NCBI RefSeq assembly: GCF_003991155.1
Contig: NZ_CP031293.1
Source: Escherichia coli
GTDB taxonomy: Bacteria; Pseudomonadota; Gammaproteobacteria; Enterobacterales; Enterobacteriaceae
Reading direction: 5' to 3' (one strand)
Length of the DNA: 64,000 nucleotides
Shown: positions 45,001 through 54,000 of the stretch, piece by piece
Layout: each line of letters opens with the position of its first letter
Numbering within the stretch: the first letter of the stretch is position 1
Position numbers: made by a program

Positions 45001-48000
45001 CGATGCGTTATCTGTTCATCTGGAACGCGGCGCGGTTAACCTTGCGGATTTCGCCTGGGCACGGCAGCTCAACGGCGAAGGGATGCGCGAACTGCTGCAA
45101 CAGCCTGGCTATATTCAGGCTGGTTACAGCTTGTTGAATGCGCCAGTTGCCGCCCGCTGGCAGCGGAAAATTATCGACACATTAGCGACTTATCATGAGC
45201 AACATCGCGATGAGCCTGGTCCTGGGCGCGAACGTCTGCGACGTATGGCGTTGCCAATGGAAGATGAAGCGCTGGTACTGTTGCTGATTGAAAAGATGCG
45301 CGAAAGCGGCGACATCCTCAGTCATCACGGTTGGCTGCATCTGCCGGATCACAAAGTGGGCTTCAGTGCAGAGCAGCAGGCCATCTGGCAAAAAGCAGAG
45401 CCGCTGTTTGGTGACGAACCGTGGTGGGTGCGTGATCTGGCAAAAGAGACGGGTACCGACGAGCAGGCAATGCGCCTGACGCTACGCCAGGCGGCGCAGC
45501 AGGGGATAATTACCGCGATCGTTAAAGATCGTTATTACCGTAACGATCGGATTGTCGAGTTTGCTAATATGATCCGCGATCTCGATCAGGAGTGTGGCTC
45601 GACCTGCGCGGCGGATTTCCGCGATCGCTTAGGCGTAGGCCGAAAGCTGGCAATTCAGATTCTGGAATATTTTGACCGCATTGGCTTTACGCGTCGTCGT
45701 GGAAATGATCATTTATTACGCGACGCATTATTATTTCCGGAAAAATAAGGAAATGATTAATTCATAATAAATATGAATTAATACAAAATTTCTTATTAAT
45801 GTTAAGAAGGCACGTTATTTGATGAATGTAACGTGCTTTTTATTAAAAATATTTTAATAAACGGTAATATTGATCATATTTTCAAATGAAAATTCTCAGT
45901 AAGCTGCCCGCCCTTTTTTACACTTTCAGGAGTGTGTTATGGCAGCTTCAACCTTTTTTATTCCTTCCGTGAATGTTATTGGTGCTGATTCATTGAATGA
46001 TGCAATGAATATGATGGCAGATTATGGATTTACCCGTACCTTAATTGTCACCGACAATATGTTAACGAAATTGGGTATGGCGGGTGATGTGCAAAAAGCA
46101 CTGGAAGAACGCAATATTTTTAGCGTTATTTATGATGGCACCCAACCTAACCCAACCACGGAAAACGTCGCCGCAGGTTTGAAATTACTTAAAGAAAATA
46201 ATTGCGATAGCGTGATCTCCTTAGGCGGTGGTTCTCCGCACGACTGCGCAAAAGGTATTGCGCTGGTGGCAGCCAACGGCGGCGATATTCGCGATTACGA
46301 AGGCGTTGACCGCTCTGCAAAACCGCAGCTGCCGATGATCGCCATCAATACCACGGCGGGTACGGCCTCTGAAATGACCCGTTTCTGCATCATCACTGAC
46401 GAAGCGCGTCATATCAAAATGGCGATTGTTGATAAACATGTAACTCCGTTGCTTTCTGTCAATGACTCCTCTCTGATGATCGGTATGCCGAAGTCACTGA
46501 CCGCCGCAACGGGTATGGATGCCTTAACGCACGCTATCGAAGCGTATGTTTCTATTGCCGCCACGCCGATCACTGACGCTTGCGCACTGAAAGCGGTGAC
46601 CATGATTGCCGAAAATCTGCCGTTAGCCGTTGAAGATGGCAGTAATGCGAAAGCGCGTGAAGCAATGGCTTATGCCCAGTTCCTCGCCGGTATGGCGTTC
46701 AATAATGCTTCTCTGGGTTATGTTCATGCGATGGCGCACCAGCTGGGCGGTTTCTACAACCTGCCACACGGTGTATGTAATGCTGTTCTGCTGCCACACG
46801 TTCAGGTATTCAATAGCAAAGTCGCTGCAGCACGTCTGCGTGACTGTGCCGCTGCAATGGGCGTGAACGTGACTGGTAAAAACGACGCGGAAGGTGCTGA
46901 AGCCTGCATTAACGCCATCCGTGAACTGGCGAAGAAAGTGGATATCCCGGCAGGCCTGCGTGACCTGAACGTGAAAGAAGAAGATTTCGCGGTACTGGCG
47001 ACTAATGCCCTGAAAGATGCCTGTGGCTTTACTAACCCGATCCAGGCAACTCACGAAGAAATTGTGGCGATTTATCGCGCCGCAATGTAATCATCATTCC
47101 CGCAACGGCTGGCGAGTTGTCAGCCGCTTTTTCAACTATCTCAAAACTTGCTTTTTTTGAGATAGTTTCTCTTTCCTGCTATATACTATCTCAATATTGC
47201 GCTTTTTTGAGATAAGCACATGGCTATCAAATCACCTCCCGGACTTATTCCTTTATCACACTTATCGGGTGAGGAACTCCTGGCCCACCTGCGCTTTAAC
47301 CGGGTTACCGATGAAAAAGGACGTTATCTGCCTTTTGATGAGTTGCAGTACCGCATCAAAAAAGGAGAAAACGTCGATGTGGCGTGGACGCTTACCCGTC
47401 TGGCGCGCAACGCGGCGATCCAACGAATTAATTATTGCAATGAAGCGGGTGAACAGGCCGGATTCAACATTACCCCGGTGCTTGCAGAAGCGTGCGAGCT
47501 TGTCGACAAACGTGCTACCGCGCTGGCGCTGAAAGATCAGACTGAACGGTTACGCGGGGCCGGAGCCGAGTTAAGCCAGTTACGCCTGGAAGAGCCGATC
47601 ACCAGCTCCCAGCTGGAAGGTGCGAATACTACAACGCTGGTGGCGAGAAAAATGCTGGAAACAGGGCGGTCGCCACGCACTGAAGACGAGCATATGATTG
47701 CGGGAAATGCCCGGCTGATGGCGGAAATTCCGCACTTACTCGCAGAACCGCTGACACCTGCGCTTATTCGCCAGTTACATGCCATTGGTATGGGTGGAAT
47801 CAATGACGCGAAATATCGTCCGGGAGAATTTCGTGAAACAGATGATGTTGTGATCGCCGACTATGATGGCAATATAGTGCATCAACCGCCCGCTGCGGCA
47901 TTGTTACCGGAACGGCTGGAAAAAGTTTGCCAGTGGTTAAACAGCCATGAAGGGTATATTCATCCGTTGGTCCGTGCCTGCATTCTGCATTTTATGCTGG

Positions 48001-51000: not shown

Positions 51001-54000
51001 TTTATATTTAGAGGATCGCCAATTTTTTTGCATTCAATGAGAATTTGAACCTCGCTATTTTTTAAGATTGCATAGTCAATCTTTTCACCTTTCTTCGTTC
51101 CAATGTCGCATACAAACTCTGGGATAACTTCGGTAGGATCAAAGACATCATAACCTAACACATTGTTAATGAACGGCATTACGAAAGCATTTTTGGTAGC
51201 TTCCTCCGTTTCAATGACTCCGGCTTGTTGTTTTATTTTTGCGGATAATGAATTCAGCTTATCTATAAACTCCATAGACATTATAACTCCTTTTATATAT
51301 ATTTAATAAAAATGCGTTTTATAAAAATATAGAAAATATTTATATATTAACGCTTTATCATTGGTCATAGTTAATGTATAACACACAAAAAATAATGTTT
51401 GCACATTGTAAATACAATGGTGAAACAAACTTGATATTTATCAAGAAAATAAAACAATGTCTTTTATTGGTTGTTTTAAATGTTCAATGAATACGAGTTG
51501 GAACTATAGCAAGACTAGCTTCGATATCGCATGGATAATCTAATACAGATTTTTTAACACCTAATACTATGAGTTATATGTAAATTGCGAGCATCCTCGC
51601 ATCTTTTCAACAAGTTACTGCACACCGTTATTCTTCTTCCGAGCGGCATTCCTGAGTCAACTTTATCCCCCTGACGGCCCATATAAATCGCGCTATCGTG
51701 ATTGTTATCACTAATTGTGTGTATCGTGTGTATAATCATGGAAGGGCAGGGATGTGAAAAGTGCAGACGTGATCGCCATCCTGAAGCAGCATGGCTGGGA
51801 ACATATTCGAACCCGTGGCAGTCATCATCAGTTCCGCCACCCTGTTCATCCGGGTCTGGTGACGGTTCCGCACCCTAAAAAAGATATTAAGCCCGGTACG
51901 CTGGCGCAAATTGGGCGTCAGGCTGGTTTAACATTTTAAAATTTCAGGAGGCAATATGTTTTATCCCGCCTATATCCACAGTGATCCTGACGGCAGCGCC
52001 AGCGGTTTTTTCCCTGATGTTCCAGGCTGTTATTTTGCTGGTGATACGCTGGACAACGCTTTCCAGGATGCGCGAAGTGCACTGGTCGCGCACTTCGAAA
52101 CCTTATGCGAGATGGATGAAGAGTTGCCGCTTCCAGGCTCTGTGGAAACACATCTGGTCCAGCGTGCGCAGGACTTTATTGGCGGGCAATGGTTGCTGGT
52201 GGATATCAATATGAATCAGTTCGAAGGTCGGGCTGAACGTATCAATATTACGATGCCGAAAAGGTTACTGAACAAGATTGATACCTACGTGCGCAATAAC
52301 CCAGACTACGCCAACAGAAGTGCGTTTCTGGCAGAAGCTGCCCGGCGTGTATTGCCGGGCGTTTAATCTCGCGTTTCGATGGTTAGCGGGCAACTGCACC
52401 GACTTGTAGGCCTGATAAGACGTGTTAAGCGTCGCATCAGGCAATGTGCACCCTACGGTGGATGCGGCGCGAGCGCCTTATCCAACCTCCGGATGGCAAT
52501 GCTTTTCCTCATTCACCCAGATCCGCATTTCGCCTTCACCCCGGTTAGCCCAGCTAAACCACGGGATAAACGTCAGAGTTTGCGGCTGGCGTTTGGCTGG
52601 CGCACTGTCGTAATGCCACAGCGGTTGCTGCTCTGGATTGCTCTGTTCATACCGGTAACCCGGTGCCTGGATTAAGATCTTATGGCTGAACAATCCATTA
52701 CCTTCAAATGTCGTAAATGGCGCATCGGCGGGCAGCCACAGGTTATGCAGCGACTCGCTGTTGTCGGCCTGTTCCAGGCAATAAACCAGCGGGCCGCGCT
52801 GAATCGCCACTTTTCCGGCGACGTGACGCACCAGCGGGTTACCGTAAACGCGACGTACTGGCATTGGCAACGTCAGATTCAGCGTGTCGCCCTCCTGCCA
52901 TTCGCGGGTAATGTGCAAATACCCTTTACGAATATCCTGCTCGACCTCTTCCCCATTCAATATGATCTGCGGCTGTGTGCACCAGTCCGGCAGACGTAAA
53001 GCCAGCGTATGACGCACCGGCTGGGGCGATTCAACCGCAATTGTCACCTGTTCCTGCCACGGATAGTTTCCGCTAACCCGCAGACGCAGCGTGCCATTTT
53101 CTACCGGCACTTCCATGCTGTTTCCTGCGTATATGTTGATATACAACGCATCTTCACGCGGCGTGTAGAGATAATGACCAATCGAGGTTAGCACGCGGGC
53201 GATATTTGGCGGACAACAAGCGCAACCAAACCAACGCTGGCGGATCGGCTTAACGTGATCGTAGATATGGTTGAATTTCAGCGATTTTGGATGTACTTCC
53301 AGCGGATTCACATAGAAGAAATGTTTGCCATCCAGTGCCATGCCGCCGAGCACAGTGTTGTACAGCGCGCGCTCCATCACATCGGCATATTGACTGTCGC
53401 CTTCCATTTCCAGCATTCGTCGGGCAAACATCATCAGGCCGATGGAGGCACAGCTTTCGGCGTATACCGTGTCATTCGGCAGATCGTAATCGCTGCTGAA
53501 CGCTTCACCGCTGCTCTGTGAGCCAATGCCGCCGGTAATATATAACTGACGCTGGGCCATATTGTTCCACAGCCGCAGGCAGTCCTGACGCTTGCTTTCA
53601 TCGTGACTTAAACGCGCGAGATGCGCGACGCCGGTCATCAGGTAGACAAAACGTACCGCGTGACCAATGGCGGTTTGCTGCTGTGCGATGGGCAAATGTG
53701 CCTGGCTGTAGGCTTTGTCTTTCACCATCCACGCCGGGCCGTAGGTGTGCCAGTGCGAGGTCTGCCCGCGCTTTTCATATTCCTGGTCGTAATAGTGCGG
53801 TTGCGCACCACGCTGTTCGACAAAATAGTTCGTCAGCGCCAGGTAGCGCGGCTCTTCGGTCACTTCATACAGGCGCATTAGTGCCAGTTCAATTTCCGGG
53901 TGACCAGGATAACCGTGTAACTTACTTTCATCTGGACCAAATACGCTGTCGATATGATCGGTCAGACGGCAAACTACTTCCAGCAAGCGCCGTTTTCCCG

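Follow-up and report, generated by a model that had tools for sequence, protein, structure and literature searches.

Resident accessory genes around aldB in Escherichia coli, a locus likely shaped by deletion and reassortment and not by cargo capture

The 64,000-nt stretch of Escherichia coli DNA analyzed here (contig NZ_CP031293.1; hereafter the window, meaning this stretch at its full length) matches E. coli 2016C-3878 (NZ_CP029747.1) at 100% identity and carries the core gene aldB between a gene for a Fic-family protein on one side and, on the other, a solitary nuclease gene followed by a hicAB toxin–antitoxin (TA) pair. The gene order is selA, selB, yiaY, Fic, aldB, nuclease (opposite strand), hicA, hicB, a repetitive extragenic palindromic (REP) element, a cluster encoding a GH127 glycosidase, a major facilitator superfamily (MFS) transporter and an AraC regulator (GH127-MFS-AraC), and sgbE. 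We consider it likely that the aldB neighborhood is an ancient accessory islet under differential deletion and reassortment, and not a site of cargo capture. Its polymorphism appears to stem mainly from loss, not from integration, because sites without the genes are scarred, the variants are a few haplotypes built from shared modules, the locus bears no hallmarks of mobility and the same residents are found across species.

Presence and absence were scored in 5,426 complete E. coli RefSeq genomes, with junctions counted by megablast coverage thresholds. All three modules are accessory (Fic in 29% of the genomes, hicAB in 9.3% and the nuclease in 3.5%), and the aldB 3′ end was found in 5,410 genomes. 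An earlier note on this DNA had described aldB as bracketed by defense-like genes and had proposed an integration hot spot, in which other strains would hold different cargo at the same two junctions. The bracketing holds, as Pfam and RefSeq support the identities of the genes on both sides of aldB, and so does their defense-like character: Fic matches the PADLOC SoFic system, HicAB is a type II TA pair, and the nuclease family is common in prophages. Both junctions vary between strains, so that the uniform content in all E. coli genomes that the note had named as its refutation was not observed. What varies, however, is not different integrating cargo but Fic or its scars at one junction and five haplotypes of the same modules at the other.

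The yiaY–aldB junction and the Fic cassette

Only three alleles were seen between yiaY and aldB: Fic, a long scar and a short scar. Of the 5,426 genomes, 1,572 carry the Fic segment at a coverage of 80% or more, and yiaY and aldB are adjacent without Fic in ~70%. In K-12-type genomes window position 47142 is joined straight to 48510, which leaves the short scar; long-scar genomes, 594 in number, keep the sequence to 47168 and have deleted 47169 to ~48499. The short-scar query was covered to 80% or more in 3,355 genomes, some of which also belong to the long-scar set. The long scar still holds operator 1 of the Fic cassette described below, and taking from it the 36 bp between two TATCTC repeats gives the exact K-12 sequence. 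The other rows in spread samples of the two empty-site searches comprised the Fic allele, one IS150 insertion and two shifted match starts; of the two shifted rows the one examined was an ordinary Fic genome, and one further sampled row was left out of the inspection. Ec394-330266, which this search had raised as possible novel cargo, turned out to combine an ordinary Fic gene with the arrangement typical of sequence type 131 (ST131).

The Fic gene of E. albertii occupies the same site and is 91.8-93.1% identical in DNA, compared with 92.1-93.0% for aldB. In Citrobacter and Kluyvera yiaY adjoins aldB too, without Fic and without the ~70 bp that are specific to E. coli. We infer that Fic reached this junction by one insertion in an Escherichia ancestor, which nested deletions then followed. 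A self-contained cassette of two operators and the gene would have inserted a single time at the yiaY–aldB junction, ahead of the split of E. coli from E. albertii. Later, ~70% of E. coli would have lost it, first through a deletion that spared one operator and then through the 36-bp deletion between the TATCTC repeats.

The Fic protein retains an intact catalytic motif, HPFRDGNGRTSR (of the HPFx[D/E]GNGRxxR type), together with the inhibitory-helix motif SSQLEG, and has a class II architecture, with an N-terminal inhibitory helix and a C-terminal winged helix-turn-helix (wHTH). It matches the PADLOC SoFic model PDLC03963 at 1.2e-43 (147.9 bits, model positions 30-351 of 361). Against the NCBIfam SoFic equivalog model NF046030 it scores 40.3 bits, below the cut-off of 550, and by this measure of orthology it is only a distant relative of the characterized SoFic proteins. 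Matches to FICD and SoFic chains in PDB range from E 2.6e-12 to 1.2e-05, those to SoFic chains alone from 4.5e-07 to 1.2e-05. Judged by its family, it is probably a SoFic-like, auto-inhibited AMP transferase.

Upstream of the gene lie two palindromes of 30 nt each, at ~-82/-62 and -33/-13 relative to the Fic start codon (47135-47164 and 47185-47214). The identical pair, with the same spacing, is found upstream of Fic homologs in E. albertii and Pseudescherichia, as well as on a Salmonella conjugative element and a metagenome contig, and the pair accompanies Fic in five unrelated contexts, the Pseudescherichia site being an unrelated chromosomal position. Because pair and spacing recur before Fic homologs elsewhere, we take the palindromes to be part of the Fic cassette. 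The C-terminal wHTH of Fic may be what binds them, and their pairing suggests that Fic represses its own transcription. The Salmonella Fic homolog (~70% identity) is located near AcaB, DUF3158, DUF3577 and TrwB-like genes, a conjugative-element context (L017 7532-13299, L018).

The aldB 3′ junction, the nuclease and hicAB

On the other side, homology between strains stops at the aldB stop codon. Five haplotypes of shared modules account for 5,339 of the 5,410 genomes with an aldB end (~98.7%): the nuclease, hicAB and the GH127 cluster (188 genomes); REP, hicAB and the GH127 cluster (~317); REP, a hicB 3′ remnant and yiaWVUT, with or without the GH127 cluster (3,786); REP followed directly by the GH127 cluster, as in the ST131 genomes examined (567); and aldB followed directly by sgbE (481). 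The atypical rows that were inspected are IS1, IS150 or ISApl1 events or known haplotypes. NE88 and AREA_492, candidates for novel cargo in which homology ends at the aldB stop codon, proved to carry the aldB-sgbE haplotype.

The modules that are missing from a given haplotype have left traces there. The nuclease segment occurs in 188 of the 5,426 genomes, with alleles 98.7-100% identical, and nuclease-less genomes have ~100 bp with a REP element in its place; related REP copies in inverted orientation are found at the aldB 3′ junction of these genomes. hicAB is present in 505 genomes, 188 with the nuclease and 317 without it, and in ~3,400 genomes without hicAB a 49-bp piece of the hicB 3′ end lies between aldB and yiaW at 98-100% identity. 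In the minimal aldB-sgbE junction, 13 nt of the nuclease-type junction are followed by the final 22 nt of hicB, a 14-nt filler and the sgbE stop codon. E. albertii, in which sgbE also lies directly beside aldB, has the same scar with three substitutions, and a 22-nt hairpin from the hicB tail (52339-52360) is kept in both the aldB-sgbE haplotype and E. albertii, where a 24-nt match is 100% identical. Because of these hicB and junction scars, the nuclease and hicAB appear to be ancestral and to have been deleted in different ways. The GH127-MFS-AraC cluster (52478-56909) is variable as well: K-12-type genomes retain only a 189-bp fragment of GH127 and the final 102 bp of the AraC gene, and in both of the ST131-type genomes examined GH127 carries a frameshift. 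Of the 5,426 genomes, 3,726 have the yiaWVUT block of K-12.

Comparison with other genera points to the same antiquity. Citrobacter, Salmonella, Superficieibacter and Enterobacter hold the closest relatives of the nuclease (78-85% amino acid identity). The nuclease gene of C. freundii and Salmonella is convergent with aldB, as it is in the window, and a single unbroken DNA alignment of ~81% identity extends from aldB into the nuclease; the nuclease alone is 77-79% identical, compared with 84-85% for aldB and 82% for yiaY. The hairpin between the two convergent genes has an equivalent position in both, and the sequence changes within it still pair. In Enterobacter asburiae the nuclease is a few genes from aldB, beside decayed hicA and hicB. 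The GC content of the nuclease gene is low (31-35%) in every genus examined; in the window it is ~33%, against 54% for aldB. The GH127-MFS-AraC cluster, for its part, is syntenic near aldB in Citrobacter, Enterobacter, Leclercia, Kluyvera and Pseudescherichia. On this evidence the low-GC nuclease and the adjoining hicAB probably stood downstream of aldB already in an ancestor common to Salmonella, Citrobacter and Enterobacter. Most E. coli lineages would then have lost them by deletion, with a REP element or a hicB fragment often left behind; the five haplotypes would be presence/absence combinations of the nuclease, hicAB, yiaWVUT and GH127-MFS-AraC, which homologous recombination via the flanking core genes reassorts.

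HicA and HicB, from their families, are probably an mRNA-interferase toxin and its antitoxin, a standard type II pair. That they form one functional three-gene unit with the nuclease, such as a TA-controlled nuclease, is scarcely credible. The nuclease does adjoin hicAB in E. coli and lies beside hicAB remnants in Enterobacter, Porphyromonas phages show the order HicA-HicB-nuclease on one strand, and HicAB and a nuclease homolog are adjacent in IMG/VR loci L164 and L167. But a linkage search across 80 IMG/VR loci, with iterative hidden Markov models built from the HicA and HicB sequences of the window and of the Porphyromonas phages, placed HicA or HicB within 4 kb in only 5 of the 80 viral loci. 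C. freundii has the nuclease without hicAB, and hicAB occurs without the nuclease in 317 E. coli genomes, so that the pairing is broken in both directions and an obligate HicA-HicB-nuclease module is unlikely. Moreover, the relative orientation of nuclease and hicAB is not alike in E. coli and Enterobacter, and elsewhere the nuclease stands alone among housekeeping genes. Among the P. gingivalis phages, phage019b (L103 4247-6074) is one in which HicA, HicB and a 47%-identical nuclease homolog are adjacent on one strand; a few IMG/VR loci (L164, L167, L175) show this adjacency too.

The nuclease itself has an N-terminal PD-(D/E)xK domain like those of HsdR and type IIG enzymes, a helical middle, a flexible linker and a C-terminal alpha/beta domain. 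An AlphaFold2 (AF2) model with a pLDDT of 92.6 gives the corresponding nuclease head, helical spacer, linker and small alpha/beta C-terminal domain. Residues 3-356 match phrog_4225 "endonuclease" over profile positions 2-352 of 357 (E 1.1e-130), and the family comprises 1,215 clusters at 50% identity (E <= 1e-30) that are conserved over the full length, with invariant PD-(D/E)xK residues. Pfam scans and the structure model detected no helicase or motor domain in the protein, and the annotation shows neither hsdM nor hsdS in the 22-kb neighborhood or at the Citrobacter, Enterobacter and Salmonella loci; "orphan," the earlier description, is apt. The RefSeq name of this gene, "type I restriction endonuclease," is misleading for a protein that has the N-terminal HsdR nuclease domain only, with no motor and no HsdM or HsdS. 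Assignment of the family, which has neither a solved structure nor a PADLOC model, to a known system failed: PADLOC gave only a weak match, to a type IIG N-terminus (3.7e-07), NCBIfam gave none, no PDB sequence matched at E <= 1, and Foldseek returned nothing from PDB at E <= 0.001. The literature on HSDR_N, PF04313 and stand-alone HsdR-N proteins held nothing relevant, the Zymomonas case being an HsdR-N/HsdM fusion. Our best guess, made from its family, is a methyltransferase-less, restriction-type DNA endonuclease aimed at incoming DNA.

Homologs of the nuclease are present in >500 IMG/VR contigs and in plasmids and temperate phages of Actinobacteria, Firmicutes, Bacteroidota and Fusobacteria, one of them beside the repressor of Corynebacterium phage Juicebox. 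Widespread, prophage-borne, structurally confident and uncharacterized, the family is a candidate for defense screens and the main by-product of this analysis.

Loss, capture and reassortment

The hot-spot proposal of the earlier note, taken as the claim that both aldB junctions repeatedly capture differing defense cargo, is very unlikely to be right. In its favor, content differs between strains, all three modules are defense-like, the Fic and nuclease families are mobile on a wide scale, and empty sites exist on both sides of aldB (yiaY-aldB adjacent in ~70% of genomes, aldB-sgbE in 481). A published survey defined 41 E. coli defense hotspots (Hochhauser et al. 2023, PMC10121019); its islands had to hold at least 10 genes, a threshold at which small islets would have been missed, and aldB, yiaY, selB, sgbE, yiaW and yiaT do not appear in its text or in the supplements searched. 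However, no alternative cargo was found at either junction: the states are the three yiaY–aldB alleles and, in 5,339 of 5,410 genomes, the five downstream haplotypes, the inspected outliers are insertion sequence events or known haplotypes, and the inserts are of 1-2 genes and not mobile-element cargo of at least 10 genes. The "empty" sites bear the scars of the very same cargo. RefSeq annotates no integrase or transposase at the locus, no tRNA was found there, no att-like repeat was seen and a search for terminal repeats around the nuclease segment gave AT-rich chance matches only, while Fic and the nuclease are resident at the same sites in other species and genera.

A history of loss from an old islet, the reading that we prefer, has evidence of its own to answer. 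Fic homologs occur at other loci and on a conjugative element, and phages and plasmids from several phyla hold nuclease homologs with 40-70% identity, which mark that family as mobile at large scale; because both families are mobile so widely, Fic and the nuclease must at some time have come in by insertion. The nuclease has diverged faster than aldB, and its distribution is patchy in every genus: C. werkmanii, Citrobacter FP75 and the E. asburiae representative lack it. It may have been re-acquired repeatedly through flanking homology. The identical aldB-sgbE scar is found in E. albertii and E. coli, while the near-identical flanks of ST131 (99.4-99.7% identical to those of the aldB-sgbE haplotype) still carry GH127; a shared scar of this kind requires trans-species polymorphism or recombination. 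Finally, the counts cover complete RefSeq genomes, in which rare cargo at a frequency of <= ~1.3% would escape notice, the junction counts depend on megablast coverage thresholds, and a single empty-site megablast query did not join across the K-12-type scar, for which a second query was used.

In an alternative explanation, balancing (frequency-dependent) selection on defense would keep long-lived polymorphisms in being and homologous recombination would repeatedly move whole haplotypes between lineages and even species, so that loss would not be one-way. The aldB-sgbE scar common to E. albertii and 481 E. coli genomes would fit, as would the occurrence of Fic state and downstream haplotype in most, indeed nearly all, combinations. 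Nuclease alleles are up to 1.3% apart, and flank identity within E. coli is low, at 95.3-96.9% for aldB and 93-95% for sgbE compared with 97.7-99.2% for selA and yibF. Yet the high divergence spans the whole sgb/yia operon, and its cause may be unrelated to defense; the anti-phage activity of these genes is, in addition, presumed from their families. We judge this explanation improbable as a whole. A broader proposal has the nuclease as an overlooked single-gene anti-phage or anti-plasmid system, possibly modification-dependent, and the Fic/nuclease/hicAB polymorphism at aldB as an ancient one under balancing selection since before the enterobacterial genera split, with the E. coli/E. albertii scar as one trace of it; we regard it as tentative and rather doubtful. 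The module combinations, the divergence of the flanks and the shared scar point to recombinational reassortment, and perhaps to long-lived polymorphism.

The locus offers a caution for "defense islands" read from one genome, since toxin-like, nuclease and TA genes that bracket a core gene may be old residents, and scars together with cross-species synteny alone separate these from a capture site. On a rough estimate, if ~2% of genes are defense- or TA-like, chance alone would give each genome a few such juxtapositions. The Fic gene of ~29% of E. coli, ST131 and O157:H7 included, would be an ancestral Escherichia gene in a portable two-operator cassette that was lost from K-12. K-12 and most laboratory strains bear the scars of hicB and of the Fic cassette here.

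Some observations concern the surroundings of the locus. Upstream of selA, yibI-yibH (DUF3302 + HlyD) are paralogs of yiaW-yiaV, which lie downstream of aldB, with ~69-79% amino acid identity (tblastn; L020, L022-L025 and L034, ~3,000-4,900; L186 13217-14718), and like two-gene units flank the selAB-yiaY-aldB block in several genera. The core-like genes of the sgb/yia operon (56941-61628, sgbE to yiaO) differ by 5-9% between E. coli strains, with yiaO identity down to 91%; the divergence of sgbE among E. coli strains matches that between E. coli and E. albertii, as opposed to only 1-2% for selA and yibF. O157:H7 is without the whole sgb/yia operon and has AraC, then a yiaJ remnant, then ysaA. 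Between yibH and yibF (29711-41653) the window holds a ~12-kb block of a chaperone-usher fimbrial operon (pefC-like usher), two regulators and an S6-family (SPATE) autotransporter. Elsewhere this junction carries an Rhs element, in K-12-like genomes, or joins yibH directly to yibF, in some B2-like genomes, and it resembles a true alternative-cargo site more closely than either aldB junction does.

Features of the aldB neighborhood, with window coordinates (strand "." where none applies)
Feature	Coordinates	Strand	Evidence and remarks
yiaY, Fe-dependent alcohol/L-threonine dehydrogenase	45939-47090	+	Pfam Fe-ADH, RefSeq; left core anchor
Two palindromic operator-like elements, ACTATCTCAAAA-N-TTTTGAGATAGT	47135-47214	+	Repeat family D2
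Variable Fic segment, 1,367 bp	47143-48509	+	blastn breakpoints and direct reading; gone from K-12-type genomes
Fic-family protein, 431 aa	47220-48515	+	Pfam Fic E 5.6e-20; PADLOC SoFic
aldB, core gene	48623-50161	+	Pfam Aldedh E 6.5e-159, RefSeq
Variable nuclease segment, 1,420 bp, ~30% GC	50163-51582	.	blastn breakpoints, GC profile
Hairpin between convergent aldB and nuclease, bidirectional terminator-like	50166-50198	.	Terminator scan
Solitary nuclease, 359 aa	50202-51281	-	HSDR_N E 2e-11
hicA toxin, 61 aa, GTG start	51754-51939	+	PF07927 E 1.9e-23, phrog_353 "toxin", RefSeq
hicB antitoxin, 136 aa	51956-52366	+	PF15919 E 6.6e-36, phrog_497
hicB 3′ end and tail	52283-52391	+	Remnant between aldB and yiaW in K-12/O157-type genomes
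Insertion point of yiaW-yiaV-yiaU-yiaT, a 3.6-kb block in other strains	52392-52395	.	blastn breakpoints vs loci L004, L006
REP/BIME (bacterial interspersed mosaic element), scored naRNA4	52409-52487	-	Rfam RF02564, 63.4 bits vs gathering 59.5
GH127 glycosidase	52478-54457	-	Pfam, RefSeq
MFS transporter	54468-55868	-	Pfam, RefSeq
AraC regulator	56094-56909	+	Pfam, RefSeq
sgbE (annotated araD)	56941-57636	-	RefSeq; right anchor

Comparison with known systems

Like SoFic (Millman et al. 2022, 10.1101/2022.05.11.491447; EcSofic, PMC12249575), the window Fic is a stand-alone Fic protein with the same motif, an inhibitory helix and a wHTH-like C-terminal region. It differs from the characterized SoFic proteins in being ~60 aa longer at the N-terminus and in its surroundings: a 47-aa AS1-like gene downstream has no space here, because the gap between Fic and aldB is only 107 bp. 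The hicAB pair resembles type II HicAB systems in its HicA_toxin and HicB_lk_antitox domains, with the toxin first, both genes on the same strand and a 16-bp gap. Unlike HicAB systems, its sequence turned up at essentially a single site per genome in the complete genomes searched, the aldB locus in the loci examined, and in most E. coli only a 3′ fragment of it is left.

The nuclease shares its N-terminal PD-(D/E)xK domain with type I HsdR. In contrast to HsdR and to type IIG/IIL enzymes (BpuSI, DrdV), it is without an SF2 motor, methyltransferase, specificity domain or hsdM/hsdS, and it has a distinct C-terminal alpha/beta domain. The phage members of PHROG 4225, from Corynebacterium, Porphyromonas, Enterococcus and Fusobacterium phages, reside in lysogeny or accessory regions, whereas the window nuclease is stand-alone and chromosomal, with no surrounding prophage, and is syntenic across enterobacterial genera.

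As at the hotspots of Hochhauser et al., accessory defense-like genes here lie between core genes that are adjacent elsewhere, and a minority of strains is occupied. The aldB locus differs from those hotspots in having no mobile backbone, tRNA or diversity of cargo, in "empty" sites that are scarred by the same genes, and in the size of its islets, which hold 1-2 genes. Taken as a whole, the locus is of a familiar sort: a small variable region whose genes belong to known families and whose history of loss is clear.

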